From Candidatus Yanofskybacteria bacterium RIFCSPHIGHO2_01_FULL_44_24 (GTDB lineage Bacteria; Patescibacteriota; Minisyncoccia; 2-02-FULL-40-12; GWA2-44-9), in assembly GCA_001794215.1 (NCBI GenBank), contig MGJK01000020.1, forward strand, positions 1,016-65,015: 64,000 nt of DNA, written 5' to 3'. The translations under genes were made by a program, and so were the position numbers. This document shows, piece after piece, positions 3,148 through 48,970 of the stretch. Below the pieces are notes generated by a model, which saw only the letters and a list, made by a program, of their open reading frames with translations, had not been told where the DNA came from and did no database searches. Position 1 is the stretch's first letter. Every line of letters starts with the position of its first letter.

Positions 3148-3651
3148 TTATTCTTTGCTTTCTTTATCTTTATCCTTTGGTTCTTCATTCCCTTCTTTAT
3201 CTTTTGCCGGGGGCGCATCATCTTTTCCGGGTTCTCCGATTTCTCGATAAACCGTACCTAAAACTCCGTTAACAAATTTCCCGGAAGACTCGCCGCCGAA
3301 AGACTTGGCTAATTCAATCGACTCGTTAATGGCGACCTTCGGAGGCACCTCTTCCCTGTTTCCGAAAAGCAATTCATAAAGCCCGACCCGCAAGACATTC
3401 CTATCCACCACCGCAATCTGTTCAAGGGGCCACTGAGGAGCGGCTTTTTCAATAATTAGATCGAGTTCTTTAATATGGCCCATTACGCCGTCAATGAGCT
3501 GGTGAACAAAGGTGCTGTCTTCAAGGCCGGCCGCAAATTCCTCCAAGTTTCTTTTGACTATCTCTGCCAACTCGTCATTTTTCCTGCCTCGAAAATCCCA
3601 CTCATAGAGTGATTGCATAGCTACGCTTCTTGAAAGGTGCCGTGATGCCAA
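3148..3651 (-). CDS. nusB: Transcription antitermination factor NusB (TTG start)
   Basis: [17 protein letters not shown] aligns to the NusB N-terminal RRRARExAxQALY motif. The start codon is TTG. Confidence 0.85.
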
Positions 3652-3759
3652 AATTCAATTTACAATTTACATTTTACAATTTACAATCGATGTCTCAATG
3701 ATCTAATTCTCAAAAATTGAAAATTCGATGAAAATTGGTACTTGAAAATTGAAAATTAT
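3652..3759. repeat. AT-rich heptamer tandem repeats: (CAATTTA)-like at 3656-3687 and (GAAAATT)-like at 3713-3759
   Basis: Direct reading of the spacer between rpmF and nusB. Confidence 0.8.
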
Positions 3760-3977
3760 TTCTGCCTGTGCTTCTGCTTCTCCTTCTTTTTCAGTTCCTT
3801 AGCCAAAACATTAATGATCTCTTTCCCCTTATAGTGGCCGCAATTTTTGCACACCAAATGAGGTAAAATCATTTTTTTACAGTGAGAACAGGCTGTCAAT
3901 TGTTTGGGCTTAAGGGCAAGGTGGCTTCGTCTTCGAAGCTGCTTGCCCTTGGCCATGTGGTGTCTTGGAACTGCCAT
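3756..3977 (-). CDS. rpmF: 50S ribosomal protein L32
   Basis: MAVPRHH...RRSH...CxxC...CxxC zinc-ribbon pattern of bL32. Confidence 0.9.
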   Translation of the reverse strand: MAVPRHHMAKGKQLRRRSHLALKPKQLTACSHCKKMILPHLVCKNCGHYKGKEIINVLAKELKKKEKQKHRQK

Positions 3978-4085
3978 AAGAAGTGGCCCAAAGCTTAAGG
4001 CCCCAGATCTAAAGATTTAAACGTTAAGCTTTAAGTGCAATACTAACACGAAATAATAATTTTTGCAATTGCCTAATCGGCCGAT

Positions 4086-4107
4086 CAAAAAGACCCGAAA
4101 AGGGTCT
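4086..4107 (-). terminator. Rho-independent terminator AAAGACCCgaaaaGGGTCTTT + T-run
   Basis: Perfect 8-bp stem. On the minus strand it is followed by TTTTTGAT, directly after the stop of the metalloprotease gene. Confidence 0.6.
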
Positions 4108-4719
4108 TTAGTCCGGTACGGCATTGATATGGGCAATCCGATCGTCGTATTCGGCATTATGATTGACCAGCCGAATAGCCAAAAAAAACAAATAGGGGTG
4201 CTTTCTCAAGAAATTCGTCTTCCGATCGCTTTCTTTTTTTAACTTTTTAACCACAGAGAGAATCCCCGATTTCCCGGCTATTTCCGCGGCACGAACATCA
4301 ACCATCCAATGAGGCCGAAAGTCATCGCCAAATCTCTCCGCCTCTTCCGCATGAGCAAATTCATGAGCCAATAAGCCCGCTAACTCATCAGGGGTAAACT
4401 CAATCAACGCTTTCTCGGTTATGTAAATGCATTTATAAACCCAGAAGTAATAAGCGTTGAGATAATCTGCTTTGAAAACAATGACATAGCACGGATCATG
4501 GATAGACAGCGAGACTTTAAATCTTTTTCTTGCCTCATTAATCTGCTCATAGTATCGGACGACCTGGTCATTATACAACGAAGCGGCCGGGAAATCGGTT
4601 TTATGCTCTTCTGTCTCAAGAAATCCAAGAGCATAAATATTTATAAGAAGAAAACAGCCAAGCAGACCCGCAAAAAAACGAAAAATCATCCGCCCAAGCC
4701 AGTTTTTATCAAAGAACAT
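4108..4719 (-). CDS. Membrane-anchored HExxH zinc metallopeptidase-like protein
   Basis: N-terminal TM helix; LAHEFAH motif followed by EEAERFGDD. Confidence 0.45.
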   Translation of the reverse strand: MFFDKNWLGRMIFRFFAGLLGCFLLINIYALGFLETEEHKTDFPAASLYNDQVVRYYEQINEARKRFKVSLSIHDPCYVIVFKADYLNAYYFWVYKCIYITEKALIEFTPDELAGLLAHEFAHAEEAERFGDDFRPHWMVDVRAAEIAGKSGILSVVKKLKKESDRKTNFLRKHPYLFFLAIRLVNHNAEYDDRIAHINAVPD

Positions 4720-4884
4720 GCCCTACCTCTGCCTCTAAGCGGACCCGGAAAGCTTAAAACAACAGCAAGATTTGTCTATTTTACTTGTCCACACCTTTTT
4801 CTCATTGCCGGCCTCGCCACTAATGCTAAAATAGAGTTATAGATCCTAAGTTCTAAATCCGAAATCCTAAACAATCTATGTTTA

Positions 4885-4914: not shown

Positions 4915-7900
4915 TTGAGATTTACTCACCTCCACACCCATTCCCACTATTCACTCTTGGACGGACTCTCGAAAATAGATGAATTAGTGGCTAAAGCCAA
5001 AGAACTGGGAATGGAAGCGCTCGCTCTCACCGATCATGGCGTCATGTATGGCGCCATTGAGTTTTATAAGAAAGCCTCCGCGGCCGGGATCAAACCGATC
5101 ATAGGCTGTGAAATGTATATTTCCGAAAACGGAATGCACGAAAAAAGAACGGGCATAGATGATAAGAGATATCACCTAGTGATATTGGCGGAAAATAATA
5201 CCGGATACAGAAATTTAATCAAACTCGTAACCGCCGCCCACCTTGAGGGCTTCTACTATAAGCCGCGCATTGATAAAGAACTACTGCGCAGCCACTCTGA
5301 GGGCCTCATCGGTCTTTCCGCCTGCCTCGGAGGAGAAATTTCCAGAGCGGTTCTCGCAAAAAACAACGAGAAGGCCAAAAGAGTTGCATTAGAATATCAG
5401 GAGATTTTCGGAAAGGGAAACTTTTATCTTGAGGTTCAACAGCATCACCATATCGAAGAGCAGAATTTTGTCACACCCGAATTAATTAAGATATCAAAGG
5501 AAACCGGAATTCCTTTAGTCGCCACCCAAGACTCGCACTACACCCATACTGAAGACGCTCATGCCCACGATGTTCTGCTTGCGGTTCAAACCGGGAATAA
5601 ATTAGATGACAGCGACCGACTGACAATGAGAGATGATGACTTTTCATTGCTTAACGGAGAAATGATGCACGAAAAATTCAAGAATCTCGATCAGGAGTCA
5701 ATCAGTGAGGCATTTGAAAATACCAACAAGATCGCCGAACGATGCAACGTAAAAATAGACCTTGGCAAAACCCAGCTTCCTAACTTCGAATTGCCTAAAG
5801 GCTATCAATCAAGCGATGAGTATCTTCGAGAATTAAGCTCTGCCGGACTAAAGACGCGGTATGGAGATCAGATTGCCCCAGAAATACTGGACCGGCTGAA
5901 CTACGAGCTGAAAGTCATCAAACAAACGGGATTTGCTTCATATTTCTTAATCGTTCAGGACTTTGTAAACTGGGCGAAGAAAGGGGGTATCGTTGTCGGC
6001 CCGGGACGAGGATCAGCTGCCGGAAGCTTGGTTTCTTACCTACTCAATATAACCAATGTCGACCCGCTGAAATACGGACTGCTGTTTGAAAGGTTTCTAA
6101 ACCCTGAAAGGATTTCAATGCCCGACATAGACCTCGACTTTGATGACGCCAGAAGAAACGAGGTCCTGGAATATGTCGCCGAAAAGTACGGACACGATCA
6201 TTTCGCCCAGATCATAACTTTCGGTACTATGGCTGCCCGCGGCGGAATAAGGGACGCTGGAAGAGCTCTGGGATATTCCTACGATTTCTGCGATCAGATC
6301 GCTAAGATGATCCCCTTCAATCCTAACCAGGGAGAAAAGACCGGCCATCTTAAAAGATGCCTTGAGACCGTTGACGACCTAAGAAACATCTATAACACCA
6401 ACCTTGACGCCAAAAACCTGATAGATTCGGCCATGAAGCTTGAAGGAGTAGCCCGCCATGCCTCCACTCATGCCTGTGCTGTTATCATCACTCCTCAACC
6501 CCTGACCAACTACTTACCCCTTCAGCGCGGCACAAACGAGAGTGACATCATCACCCAATACGAAATGCACGCCGTTGAAGATTTGGGACTTTTAAAAATG
6601 GACTTCCTTGGATTGGCAAACCTGACTATTATCGAAAATACCCTGAAAGAAATAAAAAGAAACCACGGATTAGACCTGAATATCGATTCCATACCCCTTG
6701 ATGACAAAAAAACATATCAGCTTCTCCAAAAAGCCCAAACAACCGGAGTATTCCAATTAGAAAGCTCGGGAATGAAAAAATACCTGAAAGATTTAAAACC
6801 CAGCCAGTTTGAAGATATCGCTCTGATGATCGCTTTATACCGTCCCGGGCCGATGGATCTTATCCCCGAATTCATAGCCCGCAAGCATGGTCAGAGCAAA
6901 GTTACATATCTTCATCCAAGCCTTGAGCCCGTGCTAAACAGCACTTACGGCATTATGGTTTATCAAGAACAGCTTATGGCCGCCGCTCAGGCCTTAGCCG
7001 GCCTTTCACTGGCCCAAGCAGATATCCTTCGAAAGGCGGTAGGTAAAAAAATAAAAACCTTAGTCCAGGAGCAAAAAGACAAGGTTATAAACGGCTGTCT
7101 GAAAAATAACGTAAGGAAAGAGGTAGCTGAGAAATTTTGGCAGCTAATAGAGCCGTTCGATCGATACGGATTCAATAAAAGCCATGCCATCAGCTACGCC
7201 GCCATAGCTTATCAAACCGCCTATCTTAAAGCGCATTACCCCGTGGAATTCATGGCTGCGTTCATGAACAGTGAAACCGGAGACGTAGAGCGGGTGGCCT
7301 TCCTCATTGAGGAATGCAAAGAAATGGGCATCGAAGTCCTTCCCCCGTCTATCAACCACAGTTATGAAAAATTCGCGGTAGTTCCTTCAAACAGTTCCGG
7401 ACAGATGAAGCCGTCAATCAGATTCGGGCTGACGGCCGTTAAAAACGTAGGTGAGAATGTCGTTTCCGCAATTATTCAGGAAAGGGGAGAAAACGGTCCG
7501 TTCAAAGTAATCGATGATTTTATTTCAAGGATAAATAACAAAGACTTGAATAAGAAATCCCTTGAGAGTTTGATCAGATGCGGAGCCCTCGACATATTTG
7601 GAGAGCGCAATACGCTCCTGGCCAACATAGAACAATTGTTATACTACTCCAGGGAAAAACAGAAAAAATCTTCGATGGGCCAAGCCAGCCTCTTTGGAGA
7701 AGTGACGGATACGGAATTACCGCCCCTTCGTCTTGCCATAGCCGAACCGGCTCATAAATGGGAAAAATTATTGTGGGAGAAAGAGTTGTTGGGATTGTTT
7801 GTTTCCGATCACCCTCTCAACAGCTACCAAACTCAGCTTAGACTGGAAAAGGTTACGCCCATAAAGAGTATTTCAATCAATACTCCGGGGCCGATAAAAA

Positions 7901-21177: not shown

Positions 21178-22308
21178 TCACCTCAGCTCCGCTCCAAATT
21201 GTTTGACGGTTTCTTTGTAAATCTTTCCTTGGATAGGATCGATCTCCTCGGTCGTAAGAGTCCTCTCATTAGAACGATAAACGATTCGATAAGTATAGCT
21301 CAGTTTCTCTTTTCCGAATTTTTCGGCATTTTCATATTTATCCAGAAGTTCGACTTGCTCCACTAAGTCCCCTCCTATATGGCGGATCAGATCAAAATAG
21401 TTATTCGGCACGAACGTTTTCTCAACCACAAAAGAAATATCCCGAGTAATGGGCGGAAATTTGGAAACTTCTTTAAATTTATTTCCGAGCTTAAGCTGTT
21501 TCTTCACCCGAGGATCATCGGACCATAATAACCGTATGTCGGGCAGTTCCATGGAAGCCATCGCCAAACGCTCTAATCCAAACCCGAAAGCCCAGCCGTT
21601 ATATCCGGTTACTCCGAAATTTGATAAAACGCTCTTTCTTGGTAAGCCTGATCCGACCATCTCCACCCATTTCCCGTTAATCTCCGCCTCCATCTCGTAG
21701 CTCGGATCGGTATAAGGGAAAGTATGCTCGTAAAAACGGAATTTAATATTTTCTCCAAAAATGCTTTTTCCAATCTTAGAAAGAGTATCTTTCAAATCAT
21801 CCGCCGCAACAGTTTGCTTACTGTCGGGAGCAAGGTAGAGTCCGCCGATCTGGTGAAAAACATTCATGTGGCTACGGTCGATTTCATCCTTTCTGTAGAC
21901 CTTGCCATAACAAACTGCCCCGAAGGATTCGTTTTTATTAATACGCCCTTGAATTTCTGGATGATTCAAATAATAGTACCAGAATGCGGTGTCATGGGTT
22001 CTTAAAACATTTTTCTCGTCAACATAATAAGTGTCCGACTTACTGCGGGCCGGATGACCTTCGGGCATATTAAAAAGATCGAATAGAATTTTTGTCGGAA
22101 TTATTTCCGGTATTTCAACGACATCGAACCCCCTCAGGACGCTTAGGGTCCGGTCGACTATTTCTTTCAAAGGGCTGTCTGAAGTCCGCGACAAGTCGGG
22201 CATATCTAAATACCTCTTTATCCTTCCACTTTCAAAATCACTTCTTTGATTAAGCTTGTCTCTTAGAATATGGGCTTCCTTGGAAACAATTTTGATATAT
22301 TTACCCAT
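21178..22308 (-). CDS. pheS: Monomeric phenylalanyl-tRNA synthetase: PheS catalytic core fused to a C-terminal FDX-ACB-like anticodon-binding domain
   Basis: Class II motifs (FNMPEGHPARSKSDTYY; GFGLERLAMA). The C-terminal ~95 aa (KFPPITRDISFVVEK...YTYRIVYRS) resemble the PheT/mitochondrial FDX-ACB domain. No pheT is adjacent. Confidence 0.8.
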   Translation of the reverse strand: MGKYIKIVSKEAHILRDKLNQRSDFESGRIKRYLDMPDLSRTSDSPLKEIVDRTLSVLRGFDVVEIPEIIPTKILFDLFNMPEGHPARSKSDTYYVDEKNVLRTHDTAFWYYYLNHPEIQGRINKNESFGAVCYGKVYRKDEIDRSHMNVFHQIGGLYLAPDSKQTVAADDLKDTLSKIGKSIFGENIKFRFYEHTFPYTDPSYEMEAEINGKWVEMVGSGLPRKSVLSNFGVTGYNGWAFGFGLERLAMASMELPDIRLLWSDDPRVKKQLKLGNKFKEVSKFPPITRDISFVVEKTFVPNNYFDLIRHIGGDLVEQVELLDKYENAEKFGKEKLSYTYRIVYRSNERTLTTEEIDPIQGKIYKETVKQFGAELR

Positions 22309-22510
22309 TATTATTTCTTCTGCTGATTATCCTCAAAGCCATAAAAGCGGTCAAAACCATACCGAGCATAGACATCAAAAACGAAGCGAAAAATAAGGCT
22401 TTTATTAAAAGCCCGACACGATAAGGATCGAAGTTGACCGCTATCATAGCAAGTCCGCCCAGTGAAAGGACGGTGATTAAAAAGACAATAAAAAACTGCC
22501 AATTAATCAT
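22301..22510 (-). CDS. hypothetical small membrane protein
   Basis: 69 aa with two hydrophobic helices. Confidence 0.3.
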   Translation of the reverse strand: MINWQFFIVFLITVLSLGGLAMIAVNFDPYRVGLLIKALFFASFLMSMLGMVLTAFMALRIISRRNNNG

Positions 22511-22532
22511 AGATAGTGGTAGAAATTTACTG

Positions 22533-22812
22533 CGCGGGCGACGGGGCTCGAACCCGCAACCTCATCCGTGCACTTATCTAATATTTTCATATTAGGGTGG
22601 ACTATATCTTGCTCGTGTCTCAATAGAATTAAGATTTAGAGTCTCTGGTATCTAGTCTCTACGGCGCCCCCGCCATAGCGGGGTTCCCACGGTATTACCC
22701 GAGCTTTCGCTGTAGGGCTTCACCGTTATCCCAAAGTTATTCATCTTATAGTTTCCTATAAGAGCTGCGTGACTCCACAGGGATGCGATCTAACCAATTG
22801 ATCTACGCCCGC
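22533..22812 (-). tRNA. tRNA-Asp(GUC) interrupted by a group I intron between positions 35 and 36 (exon 1 22812-22777, exon 2 22570-22533)
   Basis: Spliced sequence: GCGGGCGTAGATCAATTGGTTAGATCGCATCCCTGT|CACGGATGAGGTTGCGGGTTCGAGCCCCGTCGCCCGCG. The cloverleaf is perfect. T-arm GCGGGTTCGAGYCCCGT matches E. coli tRNA-Asp. The discriminator is G73. The anticodon loop is CUGUCAC. CCA is not encoded. Confidence 0.85.
22571..22776 (-). mobile_element. Group I self-splicing intron (IC3 / Azoarcus-like), ~206 nt, with no internal ORF
   Basis: P1 by exon CUGU|G pairing with IGS CGCAG, placing a U.G wobble at the splice site. P2 hairpin CTTATAG-GAAA-CTATAAG. A GCGAAAGC GNRA tetraloop. The conserved GUAGAGACUAGA (J8/7-P7) word. 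The S element AAGATATAGTCC. Terminal G before the 3' splice site. Confidence 0.8.
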
Positions 22813-23564
22813 AATAAATTTTTAAAATAATGCTCAAATATAACCTTTTTTCTGCTTAAATACAACTTCCCGGCATCCTTATACATAAAGTTATATAGAC
22901 CAAAGCTGTCGTTAGAAGAGAAACATAATCGATGACCTTGGGCATAGAATAGAGTCCCTCCCTTAACAACCGCGTACTTTTTTAATACGCCCCAAAGTCC
23001 TTTTAAAAATTTCTTACTTCCTGAGGTAAGGCCGGTTATAATAATTTTGCTTTTATGCTTGCGGTCTTTTTTCTGATATTCCGACGCAGATACATGTCCA
23101 TCACCATCAAAATAGCCTCTTAAAAAATGTGGGGCAAGCGCTCGAGGTATCTTTGGCATTTTTAGAATTAGGCTTTTATTCGGCATAAAGCCCAGACGTA
23201 GAAGATCCTTGAATATCTCCTTGCTTCCAATCTGTATTTGATATGCCTTTTTCCAGTTTTTATTTTGTAAGTTTTTCTTTCTGATATAAATTTTATGATC
23301 AGAGCCTAAACAAAACTTGATCTTCTCAAGAATATCTCGGTCGGTACTATAGAATGCGATAAAATGAGCGCCTCGCTTGTTTTTGATCATATTCCCATCA
23401 GCCGCAAAAAACCCTAAAACATAAGTCATTTCTGGCGACCAATTCTTGAAAAAATCCTCATTCTTAGCTTTAAATACGGGCATTTTACCAATAAATTCTA
23501 CCGCATTTCCGGCAAAATTAAAAGCCCGCATAAAGCGGGCTTTTGAAAATTTTATCTGTCCCAA
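22803..23564 (-). CDS. LAGLIDADG homing endonuclease (double-motif), free-standing, 3' end overlapping the tRNA-Asp 5' end by 10 nt
   Basis: Two LAGLIDADG motifs: LGFFAADGNM and LRGYFDGDGHV. The likely true start is MPVFKAKNEDF at about 23483. The stop TAG lies inside the tRNA acceptor stem. Confidence 0.8.
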   Translation of the reverse strand: MGQIKFSKARFMRAFNFAGNAVEFIGKMPVFKAKNEDFFKNWSPEMTYVLGFFAADGNMIKNKRGAHFIAFYSTDRDILEKIKFCLGSDHKIYIRKKNLQNKNWKKAYQIQIGSKEIFKDLLRLGFMPNKSLILKMPKIPRALAPHFLRGYFDGDGHVSASEYQKKDRKHKSKIIITGLTSGSKKFLKGLWGVLKKYAVVKGGTLFYAQGHRLCFSSNDSFGLYNFMYKDAGKLYLSRKKVIFEHYFKNLLRA

Positions 23565-25009
23565 GACTCTTTCTGGGCGGCCAAAGAAAGCTTAACCAAA
23601 TGCTTCCTTGGGTTCTTCATGAAAATCTCTCGAGCTTCCTGAAGAGACATCCCGCCCAAATAACTGACAGTGGATGCAAGGTGGCCGGCTATCTCTCTGA
23701 TGATCGGGATCACAGATCCTTTGTACTCTATCTTTTTCTCAAGTCCCTCTGGACTTAGTTTGGAAGAGGTTTCATAAGGATCGTCTACCTCTTCGGCTCG
23801 AAGCCTTTCATACATAGCCTCACGGGAAGCCATACCCCGGAATATCTTGGCCTTTCTGCCGGTTGAATCTCTGAAAACGAGACCGGGAGTTTCATCGGTT
23901 CCGGCAATAAGTCCTCCAACCATAACCGATTCTGCTCCCAAAAGAAGAGCCGAGGCGATGTGTCCGTCTCTCTTTATTCCCCCATCAGCTATGATTGGAA
24001 CATCAGAAACTCTGGCACAATCATAGATAGCCTGAGCCTGAGGAACGCCTATATTGGTATTAAATCTGGTCGTGCAAGCCGATCCCGGTCCAAGTCCGAT
24101 CTTCAGACCGTTTACGCCCAAATCCTGATAGACTTTCACTGCGTCCGGGTCAACAATATTGCCGACAACCAATTCTGCTTCTGGAAATTTACTCCTGAGA
24201 TTCTTAACCGCTTCAAGGCCAACATCCGATTGGAAGTTAGCGATATCCATAATTAGGACATCCGCTCCGATCTTGATCAGTTCAGCCGTACGCTCTATAT
24301 AATCTCCGGTGGCGCCGACAGCCGCACCGACCACGAGTCGTCCGTTGGTATCTTTGTTGGCTAATGGATAGAGTCCGAGATTTTCGATATCTTTAGAAGT
24401 TATCAGACCGACAAGTTTCCTATCTTTGTCGACCAAAGGAAGCTTCTCAAGTCGGTTTCTATCCAAAATCTGGCGAGCCTTTGAAAAAGAAACGTCCGGC
24501 GAGGCCGTAATCAAATCTTTTTCCGATTTCATCCTTTCAGCCACGAGCTGATCATCGGAAGCAAATCTGACATCCCTCGAGCTAAGCAGTCCGAGCAACT
24601 TGCCGCTGTCGTTTATGACGACCAAACAGCCGATTTTTTCTCTTTCCATTATTTTACGGGCTTCGCCGATAGTGCTCCCCTTGGAAATACTCCGGGGATT
24701 TTCAATTACTGAGCTCTCTTTACGCTTGACCTCTTCGACTTTTTTACATTGATCCCCTATGCCGAGGTACCGATGGATAATACCGATTCCGCCTTCTCTG
24801 GCGAAGGCAATAGCCATACGGGCACCCGTTATCGTGTCCATATTGGCGGAAACGACGGGCACATTAAGAGAAACATGCTCTGAAAACCGCGAAATCAGGG
24901 ATATTCCCTTTCTGCTTTTAGCCTTTCCCCAACCGGGAGGAACCAAAAAATCATCAAAAGTACAGCCTCTGAGCTGATTTAAAAGCCACTGATCCTGCCG
25001 GCTCTTCAC
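23552..25009 (-). CDS. guaB: IMP dehydrogenase
   Basis: CBS pair plus catalytic loop IGLGPGSACTTR and GGLIAGTDETPG. Confidence 0.9.
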   Translation of the reverse strand: MKSRQDQWLLNQLRGCTFDDFLVPPGWGKAKSRKGISLISRFSEHVSLNVPVVSANMDTITGARMAIAFAREGGIGIIHRYLGIGDQCKKVEEVKRKESSVIENPRSISKGSTIGEARKIMEREKIGCLVVINDSGKLLGLLSSRDVRFASDDQLVAERMKSEKDLITASPDVSFSKARQILDRNRLEKLPLVDKDRKLVGLITSKDIENLGLYPLANKDTNGRLVVGAAVGATGDYIERTAELIKIGADVLIMDIANFQSDVGLEAVKNLRSKFPEAELVVGNIVDPDAVKVYQDLGVNGLKIGLGPGSACTTRFNTNIGVPQAQAIYDCARVSDVPIIADGGIKRDGHIASALLLGAESVMVGGLIAGTDETPGLVFRDSTGRKAKIFRGMASREAMYERLRAEEVDDPYETSSKLSPEGLEKKIEYKGSVIPIIREIAGHLASTVSYLGGMSLQEAREIFMKNPRKHLVKLSLAAQKESWDR

Positions 25010-25050
25010 GAAATGACTCCTTCTGATTTAAAAGATCACCCCGTACTAAT

Positions 25051-25100
25051 ACCACAACAAAGGGCATCTTTGCAATTGCAAAGATGCCCTTTGTTGTGGT
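25051..25100. repeat. 50-bp perfect palindrome ACCACAACAAAGGGCATCTTTGCAA|TTGCAAAGATGCCCTTTGTTGTGGT
   Basis: 25-bp arms with no mismatch. It shares the core CAACAAAGGGCATCTTTGCAA with 25684-25719. Confidence 0.85.
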
Positions 25101-25145
25101 ATCCAAGATAGTTTTAAACTTTCGTATTTAAAATTTAGATATTGT

Positions 25146-25610
25146 TTAGGATTTTTCTTCGAGAGAGGGATGCCAATAAATTTTTTCTATTTTACGGGTG
25201 CCGTTATAGGTATAATGGTGCTTTGCAATAAATCCTGTATCGCGAGAGCTATTGCTAACGGCCATATCGTTGCCCATATAAAACCCGATGTGATAATGCT
25301 CTTGGCCGTCACCGGAAGAGACTTTTTTCTCCCAAACCAAAACAGCCCCCGGCCTCGGTTCCTTCGCCTCTTTCCAGCCGAACTTAATCATATCTTTTTC
25401 GGTACTCTTCACATTCGCATGCAGATCTGTGATCATTTTTGATAAATATAAAATCGAGGAAACAAAAAAGGCACAGCTCAAGCCTCCGTCTTTTAGAATA
25501 TCAATTTCTTTTCCGTCAATTTCCGCGTATAAATTCCTGAACATCCAGTTTTCACCCTTAACTGCGTTCTCTATCAGGGTTAAGTAGTTTTTTGTCAATG
25601 AAAGTTTCAT
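25146..25610 (-). CDS. hypothetical protein with a Cys...His pattern (possible NlpC/P60- or CHAP-like hydrolase)
   Basis: GLSCAFFVSSIL ... HIGFYMGND. The assignment is tentative. Confidence 0.3.
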   Translation of the reverse strand: MKLSLTKNYLTLIENAVKGENWMFRNLYAEIDGKEIDILKDGGLSCAFFVSSILYLSKMITDLHANVKSTEKDMIKFGWKEAKEPRPGAVLVWEKKVSSGDGQEHYHIGFYMGNDMAVSNSSRDTGFIAKHHYTYNGTRKIEKIYWHPSLEEKS

Positions 25611-48604: not shown

Positions 48605-48970
48605 GGGGATGTCGGGCTTCGACGAAGCTTACGACCGATAAATGCTGGGGGTGGCATGATCGTTCAGCCACGGAAATCACATCCGATCAATTGAATAGGT
48701 GCCAAAAATTCACCTAATTACGCTTTCGCCTAACATCGTTTAGGTAAGCCATTCCACCGCGGTGTCTACTGGCGGATCATGGAGTGTCATATTGTAGACT
48801 GGACAGTTTTCGTTTTTTTTCTTCCGGAGGCTGTTGAATAAATTAAAAGAAATAGCCGTAGATTATTTTGTCGGTTTTCTACTTTACGGCGAAAGACTAA
48901 ATCGTCTATCTCGGTACACATTTATCGGTATAACTTTCGGACGTGGATTCAACTTCCACCATCTCCACCA
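48605..48970 (+). ncRNA. ssrA: tmRNA (SsrA), one-piece, ~366 nt; tag peptide AKNSPNYAFA
   Basis: 5' GGGGAUGUCGGGCUUCGACG fits the tmRNA 5' consensus. 3' GGACGUGGAUUCAACUUCCACCAUCUCCACCA matches the E. coli 3' end GGACGCGGGUUCAACUCCCGCCAGCUCCACCA. Resume codon GCC at 48701; reading frame GCC AAA AAT TCA CCT AAT TAC GCT TTC GCC TAA with the stop in a hairpin. Confidence 0.9.

Follow-up and report, generated by a model that had tools for sequence, protein, structure and literature searches.

A group I intron of a described family divides the anticodon of a tRNA-Asp(GUC) gene beside a LAGLIDADG endonuclease gene in a patescibacterial contig

A split tRNA-Asp gene on the minus strand

The stretch of DNA considered here (hereafter the window) comprises 64 kb of contig MGJK01000020.1, and on its minus strand it carries a tRNA-Asp(GUC) gene that is divided into two exons by a 206-nt group I intron and that directly follows a free-standing LAGLIDADG endonuclease gene. 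The 5' exon (22812-22777, 36 nt) spans tRNA nucleotides 1-35, reads GCGGGCGUAGAUCAAUUGGUUAGAUCGCAUCCCUGU and ends ...CCCUGU, with U35 immediately preceding the 5' splice site. The intron occupies 22776-22571, and the 3' exon (22570-22533, 38 nt, reading CACGGAUGAGGUUGCGGGUUCGAGCCCCGUCGCCCGCG) opens with CACGG, supplying C36, A37 and C38, and closes with the discriminator base G73 at 22533, the terminal CCA not being encoded. When the exons were joined in silico ARAGORN recognized a tRNA-Asp(GUC) with a standard cloverleaf, and the intron coordinates, length and 74-nt product proposed by a first-pass annotation, which had been made from the letters alone, proved exact.

Our reading, to which we give a probability of roughly 0.93, is that a group I intron lacking an open reading frame (ORF) sits between U35 and C36 of this tRNA-Asp(GUC) gene, that the intron belongs to the 35/36 family described in Patescibacteria by Nakagawa et al. 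(bioRxiv July 2025, 10.1101/2025.07.03.662931; mSystems January 2026, PMC13011429), and that it would be removed by canonical group I splicing. Searched against Rfam, the window yields two matches above the gathering score, a transfer-messenger RNA (tmRNA) and a single group I match, RF00028 Intron_gpI, at 22788-22578 on the minus strand (57.8 bits against a gathering score of 50 bits; E 4.5e-12; model positions 1-253 of 253), which bears out the earlier group I assignment by the very check that had been proposed for it. In default mode ARAGORN missed the split tRNA, the tmRNA being the sole RNA gene that it found in the 64 kb, and the same scan found no second tRNA-Asp in the window.

Relatives were sought by a pattern scan (J8/7-P7 word, gap and tRNA-Asp T-arm) of one genome per GTDB species, which returned 32 loci: 26 complete tRNA-Asp genes with an intron at 35/36, two loci cut by the locus edge, one tRNA-Asn intron and three chance matches. 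Paceibacteria, Saccharibacteria and Daviesbacteria make up most of these 26 further GTDB species, whose tRNA-Asp genes all hold a homologous intron at the corresponding position, 196-269 nt in length against 206 nt in the window. The intron had been placed at the small end of the size range; it is indeed short, but unremarkably so beside these relatives and the published range of 184-894 nt (PMC13011429). The neighbouring PheS-like protein is identical residue for residue on 18 contigs, among them contigs of the Rifle groundwater bins GCA_001794475.1 (MGJW01) and GCA_001795655.1 (MGKL01), and the 8 loci compared, from independent assemblies, do not differ at all (100% identity) across the tRNA and its intron. 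Among the GTDB loci the closest PheS relatives share 64-66% identity and are labelled Candidatus Yanofskybacteria or Paceibacterota, which points to a member of the Patescibacteria (CPR), probably related to Yanofskybacteria, as the host.

The tRNA-Asn locus of the scan (L011, CAZCAB010000046.1, approximately 6787-7100 on the minus strand) is a tRNA-Asn(GUU) with a longer 35/36 group I intron that has extra hairpins after P7/P3', and its genome bin is labelled Gammaproteobacteria. Two tRNA-Asp loci, L018 (CAYMRP010000001.1) and L039 (CAZWTE010000026.1), come from bins labelled 'uncultured Gammaproteobacteria' and have an endonuclease and tRNA-Asp-intron locus like that of the Daviesbacteria bins L014-L016; the taxonomic labels of these two bins look doubtful.

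Secondary structure and covariation

The structure was written on a MAFFT alignment of 27 introns (the window and its 26 relatives), with the P7 pseudoknot entered by hand; RNAalifold, run on the same alignment, missed P2, whose loop register shifts by one column, and the pseudoknotted P7. Over the 54 pairs scored (anticodon stem, P1, P3-P9 and P9.0; 1450 pair cells), 95.7% are standard pairs, compared with 35-42% in controls in which the 3' partners were slid by 1-3 columns. Compensatory changes occur in 28 of the 54 pairs, most of them in P3, P6a, P8 and P9, and none of 500 shuffles reached any of five measures. The core helices P3, P4, P6 and P8 show compensatory changes and 91.7-100% pairing, and P7 is 100% paired and invariant. 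The P3-P7 core, on whose ability to form the first-pass annotation had staked its claim, is thereby supported in its variable helices, P7 being consistent with the fold.

P1 (22780-22765) pairs the exon CUGU and intron nucleotide G1 (22780-22776) with the internal guide CGCAG (22769-22765) and, as had been described, sets a U35.G wobble at the 5' splice site. It is 100% paired in the 27 sequences, its exon pairs are invariant, and its intron-side pair, A-U in 25 sequences, is G-C in the other two, namely the window and one relative (L016). P2 (22763-22744), also described earlier, is an 8-bp hairpin with a GAAA tetraloop, seen by per-sequence folding. When folded singly most of the 27 sequences form a GAAA-capped hairpin here on very different stems, and the GAAA motif itself stands at the L2 and L9 positions in 27/27. 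The 5' strand of P3 (22736-22731) pairs with 22648-22643 through six pairs, five of them with compensatory changes (98.8% paired). It is followed by the P4-P5 domain (22726-22689) with its GAAA-capped distal hairpin, in which P4 (22726-22721/22694-22689) and P5 (22717-22716/22699-22698) are both 100% paired and P4 shows an A-U to U-A switch in 10 of the 27 sequences, and then by the P6/P6a hairpin (22687-22663; nine pairs, five compensatory, 91.7% paired).

The next segment (22662-22643) holds J6/7 (GUAGA), the 5' strand of P7 (GACUA, 22657-22653) and the 3' strand of P3 (CCAGAG, 22648-22643). Within it the word GUAGAGACUAGA lies at 22662-22651, with invariant columns apart from one that is >90% conserved; the word had been correctly spotted, but its J8/7 label does not stand, the Rfam alignment placing it in J6/7 and the 5' strand of P7. 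The 'S element' AAGAUAUAGUCC is likewise present, at 22610-22599, where it is invariant in the 27 sequences and is made up of J8/7 (AAGAUA), the 3' strand of P7 (UAGUC) and a C, an assignment given by the Rfam alignment. P8 (22642-22611; seven pairs counted, six compensatory) is the sole hairpin between P3' and J8/7, with neither P7.1 nor P7.2. The remainder (22598-22571) forms P9.0 (22598-22596/22574-22572), of which one pair changes from C-G to U-A in seven sequences, the P9 hairpin with its GAAA loop (22595-22578; seven pairs, five compensatory) and the terminal omegaG at 22571, the final G that had been called.

Splice register and identity of the host tRNA

Two registers satisfy the U...G rule in the window sequence. 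In one (CCCUGU/GGAG...AAGUG/CAC, slashes marking the splice sites) the spliced anticodon is GUC and the intron lies between U35 and C36, as the first-pass annotation had it. In the other both boundaries lie 2 nt upstream (CCCU/GUGG...UAAG/UGCAC) and the host would be a tRNA-Ala(UGC) with an intron at 33/34. The latter is the register chosen by ARAGORN in intron mode, a check that finds the split tRNA and misnames it, and here too a U precedes the 5' site and a G ends the intron; moreover, the conserved splice-site U of the Rfam alignment falls on U33.

The relatives separate the two. Ends of the U...G type, with the U35.G pair and a terminal G, are kept in all 27 sequences in the Asp register, but nine relatives read ...CAUG/CAC at the 3' end, where an intron shifted by two nucleotides would end in A. 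When aligned to intron-less tRNA-Asp genes the Asp-register product runs unbroken through the anticodon (88% over 52 nt and 86% over 63 nt), whereas the Ala-register product aligned to intron-less tRNAs splits in two at that point. The anticodon stem covaries across the two exons, with compensatory changes in three of its four pairs. Under the identity rules of tRNAs G3:U70 is the alanine pair, and the window tRNA has instead G3:C70 together with discriminator G73, a combination that fits aspartate. The same 2-nt mis-call as tRNA-Ala(UGC) with an intron at 33/34 (by ARAGORN and tFind) is documented in PMC13011429 and was disproved there with a sequenced spliced product. For the window the two registers predict different junctions, CCCUGUCACGG for Asp and CCCUUGCACGG for Ala. 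Because of the relatives' splice ends, the alignment to intron-less tRNA-Asp and the pairing of G3:C70 with G73 we prefer the Asp register and regard an alanine host as extremely improbable. By sequence comparison the host is tRNA-Asp(GUC), with the intron predicted at 35/36 of a GUN-anticodon tRNA and exon CUGU before the splice site.

Membership in a published family

The survey of 95 complete Patescibacteria genomes by Nakagawa et al. reports group I introns at 35/36 in 15 tRNA-Asn(GUU) and 3 tRNA-Asp(GUC) genes (PMC13011429), and a 35/36 tRNA-Asp intron in this phylum has thus been known since 2025. The proposal that tRNA-Asp was an undescribed host therefore falls, as does the accompanying view that the hosts of such introns are limited to four tRNAs, since Williams (bioRxiv 10.1101/2020.01.27.920355) had already raised the number of tRNA settings from the classical four to 21. 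In PMC13011429 GTP-dependent splicing in vitro, with sequenced junctions, is documented for one tRNA-Asp (GCA_001029755.1) and one tRNA-Asn, and a mutation of the terminal G to C blocks exon ligation.

To place the window intron we built a family hidden Markov model (HMM) from the 27 introns and ran it against the published introns in the supplement of PMC13011429. It scored 191 bits on the tRNA-Asp intron of GCA_023898525.1 (Paceibacteria), 140 bits on the tRNA-Asn intron of GCA_030583765.1 and 113 bits on the tRNA-Tyr intron of GCA_016699995.1; the tRNA-Asp intron that was spliced in vitro (GCA_001029755.1) reached 29.9 bits in a full-length match (E 2.9e-10). On these scores the window intron is a further member of the described family, homologous to the published 35/36 introns of Patescibacteria tRNAs. 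Its lineage is closer to the tRNA-Asn and tRNA-Tyr introns than to two Microgenomatia tRNA-Asp introns (30-44 bits), and the Asp, Asn and Tyr hosts share the exon CUGU before the splice site, which suffices for the internal guide GCAG. This suggests that the intron lineage may have moved between GUN-anticodon tRNAs (Asp, Asn and Tyr). The window and published introns agree in phylum, host tRNA, site, exon context (CUGU/...G/CAC), ARAGORN mis-call and sequence homology, and differ in that the genome of the window, a Rifle groundwater draft bin, lies outside the 95 complete genomes surveyed.

Predicted splicing

From the canonical group I pathway and the published splicing of a homologue, the following course can be proposed. 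The precursor would fold into P1-P9, and exon CUGU would pair with the internal guide GCAG, U35 forming the U.G wobble. An external guanosine bound in P7 would attack 3' of U35, after which the terminal G (22571) would take over the same P7 site. The freed 3'-OH of U35 would then attack after G22571, joining ...CCCUGU to CACGG... and releasing the intron, with the anticodon loop CUGUCAC restored. Since the anticodon itself is split, the tRNA would be nonfunctional before splicing.

Several points weigh against this overall reading. P7 (GACUA/UAGUC, 5/5 paired) is invariant, as is the exon side of P1, and covariation is uninformative there; a clear P10 pairing is not visible in the window sequence; the tRNA-Asp scan covers only 64 kb of the genome; and the tRNA-Asp intron spliced in vitro is, at 29.9 bits, a distant relative only. 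The view of 64 kb, together with the fact that splicing of the window sequence is a prediction, leaves room for the intron to be an inactive relic and this tRNA copy a pseudogene, with another tRNA-Asp elsewhere in the genome. We consider this very unlikely. The core elements are all intact and conserved, and the compensatory changes point to selection for the fold; the cloverleaf formed by the two exons is perfect; and the locus is identical in eight assemblies. In addition, intron-bearing and intron-less copies of one anticodon seldom coexist in a genome, and both genes assayed for splicing were sole copies (PMC13011429). Self-splicing of the window intron by the canonical pathway is most likely, as far as such comparisons can predict it.

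Subgroup

The first-pass annotation had called the intron Azoarcus-like and IC3. Its architecture is indeed as minimal as that label implies, with a single hairpin each for P2, P5, P6, P8 and P9 and no P2.1, P5abc, P7.1/P7.2 or P9.1. The IC3 label nevertheless conflicts with the published classification by best-scoring subgroup covariance model, in which none of the Patescibacteria tRNA introns falls in IC and 25 of the 28 at 35/36 are IA (PMC13011429). We lean, if only slightly, towards placing the window intron in the lineage classed as IA by current covariance models. A homologue that the family HMM scores at 191 bits belongs to that data set, and, compared by eye, the P7 and J8/7 words of the window (GAGACUAGA, GAUAGUCC) appear nearer to those of the IA1/IA2-labelled tRNA-Asn introns than to the GAGACUUGA and AAAGUCCAGACCACAA of the IC3-labelled introns in the PMC13011429 table.

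Other features pull the opposite way. The inventory of P1-P9, the GAAA loops at L2 and L9 and the receptor-like motifs in P5 and P8 of the relatives parallel Azoarcus; these CCUAAG...UAUGG motifs occur in P5 of 14/27 and in P8 of 4/27 sequences, but not in P5 or P8 of the window itself. The single hairpin between P3' and J8/7 leaves no place for P7.1/P7.2, peripheral elements that according to Michel and Westhof reportedly tend to mark IA. The family HMM does not tell the classes apart, scoring 26 bits on the IC3 tRNA-Leu intron, about 14 on Azoarcus, 9.8 on IA1 and 9.2 on IA3.

Two IC3 introns serve for comparison. The tRNA-Ile(CAU) intron of Azoarcus sp. BH72, the classical minimal IC3 ribozyme (structures cited in PMC3984707), is about 205 nt long against 206 nt here and is likewise ORF-less. 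Both introns are without peripheral domains beyond P1-P9 and have GAAA loops on P2 and P9. The Azoarcus intron presumably also shares the word GUAGAGACUAGA, a likeness to be taken as a lead rather than a test. It differs in its host tRNA and in its insertion at 36/37 rather than 35/36, and it gives only a local match to the family HMM (the 14 bits above); P5 and P8 of the window lack the canonical receptor, and by the published models the homologues of the window intron are IA, not IC3. The cyanobacterial and plastid tRNA-Leu(UAA) IC3 intron likewise belongs to the self-splicing group I introns and interrupts the anticodon loop of a bacterial tRNA behind a U, but it is inserted at 34/35 and has other P7 and J8/7 words; the example from Nostoc PCC 7120 (Table S4, PMC13011429) scores 3.1 bits on the family HMM, essentially no match. 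It seems fair to keep 'Azoarcus-like' solely as a description of the minimal architecture.

A LAGLIDADG gene that ends inside the tRNA

Directly upstream of the tRNA 5' exon, and outside the intron, lies a free-standing gene for a double-motif LAGLIDADG endonuclease, whose longest ORF of 253 aa spans 22803-23564 on the minus strand (Pfam LAGLIDADG_3, E 7.8e-16) with a likely start, MPVFK, at 23483, which would give a protein of 226 aa. Its final three codons and TAG stop are tRNA nucleotides 1-10 (22803-22812, minus strand). The 206-nt intron has no ORF inside it, so the arrangement is not that of an intron-encoded homing endonuclease. Homologues with 37-51% identity occupy the same position and strand at the GTDB intron loci, 13 of them intact and two degenerate. 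The stop is usually inside the tRNA, with an overlap of 10, 15 or 23 nt, and in nine loci and the window it is the tRNA's own U8-A9-G10. Both LAGLIDADG motifs keep their catalytic aspartate in every one of the 13 sequences, and a PDB sequence search with the endonuclease gave one weak match, 2DCH, a putative homing endonuclease (E 9e-4).

Metagenome contigs were scanned with an alignment of the 13 endonuclease proteins, giving 74 evaluable loci. In 72 of them a tRNA-Asp(GUC) lies immediately downstream of the endonuclease, 61 uninterrupted and 11 intron-bearing. The loci at which the arrangement was noted, besides the window, are L014-L016, L018, L021, L023, L025, L027, L030, L036, L038, L039 and L041-L120. 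The ORF often begins 0-3 nt after a tRNA-Met gene, thereby filling the whole tRNA-Met/tRNA-Asp spacer, and the intron loci that are without the endonuclease have short spacers (61-242 nt). Because 61 of the 74 loci adjoin an uninterrupted tRNA-Asp, the endonuclease is linked to tRNA-Asp and not to the intron. This linkage is the sole lead of the analysis that we did not find described, PMC13011429 included, and it may be new; that survey sought endonuclease genes inside introns only, the flanking LAGLIDADG gene goes unmentioned and the term 'free-standing' appears 0 times.

A scan for promoters and terminators over 22200-25200 gave counts within those of shuffled sequences, and in it no promoter-like site was seen between the endonuclease ORF and the tRNA. 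Should RNase P cut at tRNA nucleotide 1, the endonuclease mRNA would lose its stop codon, and such a loss could conceivably limit endonuclease expression. Some of the endonuclease-linked tRNAs have TTCAAAT T-loops, and the flanking ORFs of L046 and L059 are uninformative as to an archaeal origin. L059 also contains (3214-4845, minus strand) an ORF of 543 aa that resembles a large serine recombinase, and this ORF and the opposite-strand tRNA-Asp (3178-3253) overlap at their 3' ends; the ORF may be part of an element integrated at an uninterrupted, endonuclease-linked tRNA-Asp.

Could the endonuclease move the intron?

Given its position, the endonuclease might help the ORF-less intron to spread, either by collaborative homing, in which the enzyme's cut would fall in intron-less tRNA-Asp, at 35/36 or close by, with the intron conferring immunity, or by co-conversion, in which the intron, 35 bp downstream, would hitch-hike. 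Both pathways are established in phages, a review (PMC3984707) covering a cyanophage psbA intron with its free-standing endonuclease (Zeng et al. 2009) and the free-standing endonucleases of T-even phages. In keeping with such a role, 16 of the 24 intron loci whose upstream sequence is long enough to judge (23 from GTDB, and the window) are immediately preceded, on the same strand, by a LAGLIDADG gene, whether intact or degenerate, and the invariance of the catalytic aspartates in both motifs points the same way. The decayed copies at L031 and L033 and the empty tRNA-Met/tRNA-Asp spacers at L017, L024, L029, L035 and L040 fit a cycle of gain and loss. Of the 72 endonuclease-linked tRNA-Asp genes 11 carry the intron, as opposed to 3 of the 95 complete genomes of PMC13011429 (Fisher p = 0.009), a contrast biased by query endonucleases that were taken from intron-bearing loci.

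On the other side, the 61 loci that pair the endonuclease with an uninterrupted tRNA-Asp tolerate the enzyme without the intron, which would make the intron unnecessary for self-immunity and 35/36 unlikely as a general target. The state of the intron partly tracks endonuclease similarity, in that the nearest endonuclease neighbour shares the presence of the intron in 14 of 24 cases, a pattern that plain vertical inheritance would produce as well. Presence of the intron is patchy among close endonuclease relatives, and among the loci compared no clean near-isogenic pair with and without the intron was found, the most similar endonucleases of opposite intron state being those of L025/L064 (77% identity), whose tRNA exons clearly differ, and L075/L078 (72%). 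The phage systems differ further in that overlap of cleavage and insertion sites seems unlikely here, that the host is a cellular tRNA operon and not a phage gene, and that the present case is known from sequence only.

Collaborative homing with the intron as immunity element was accordingly rejected as a general explanation on the count of uninterrupted loci. Taken as a whole, we hold help from the endonuclease in the spread of the intron to be possible but rather unlikely. The same caution applies to the more specific model that an active homing endonuclease homes into the tRNA-Met/tRNA-Asp spacer throughout the Patescibacteria and that the 35/36 intron spreads or persists on its break-repair tracts, which we offer as a tentative and doubtful proposal. 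If true, it would open a way to move for those tRNA introns which the published survey deemed largely immobile for want of internal endonuclease genes.

Significance and other features of the window

The intron itself is of practical more than of conceptual value. The gene escapes tRNA finders in their default mode and is mislabelled tRNA-Ala in an intron-aware one, by which the genome would seem to be without a tRNA-Asp and estimates of completeness and inferences on codon usage would be distorted, a point already made in PMC13011429. To the published catalogue the locus adds one lineage (probably Yanofskybacteria) and 26 GTDB species, together with independent covariation support for the fold. 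The biology that may be new is the close linkage of the endonuclease gene to the tRNA-Asp 5' end throughout the phylum. The endonuclease, if active, would be a candidate driver of turnover at the tRNA-Asp locus, and it would also be an unusual example of a protein gene with its stop codon inside a tRNA.

Elsewhere in the window, the PheS-like protein mentioned above (21178-22308, minus strand, 376 aa) carries a C-terminal FDX-ACB domain (Pfam E 6e-24), an anticodon-binding domain that is normally found on the beta subunit. There is no adjacent pheT, gyrB following instead, and the protein resembles a single-chain, mitochondrial-type phenylalanyl-tRNA synthetase. The tmRNA (48605-48970, plus strand; Rfam 132 bits) is of the standard one-piece type and encodes the tag peptide AKNSPNYAFA.

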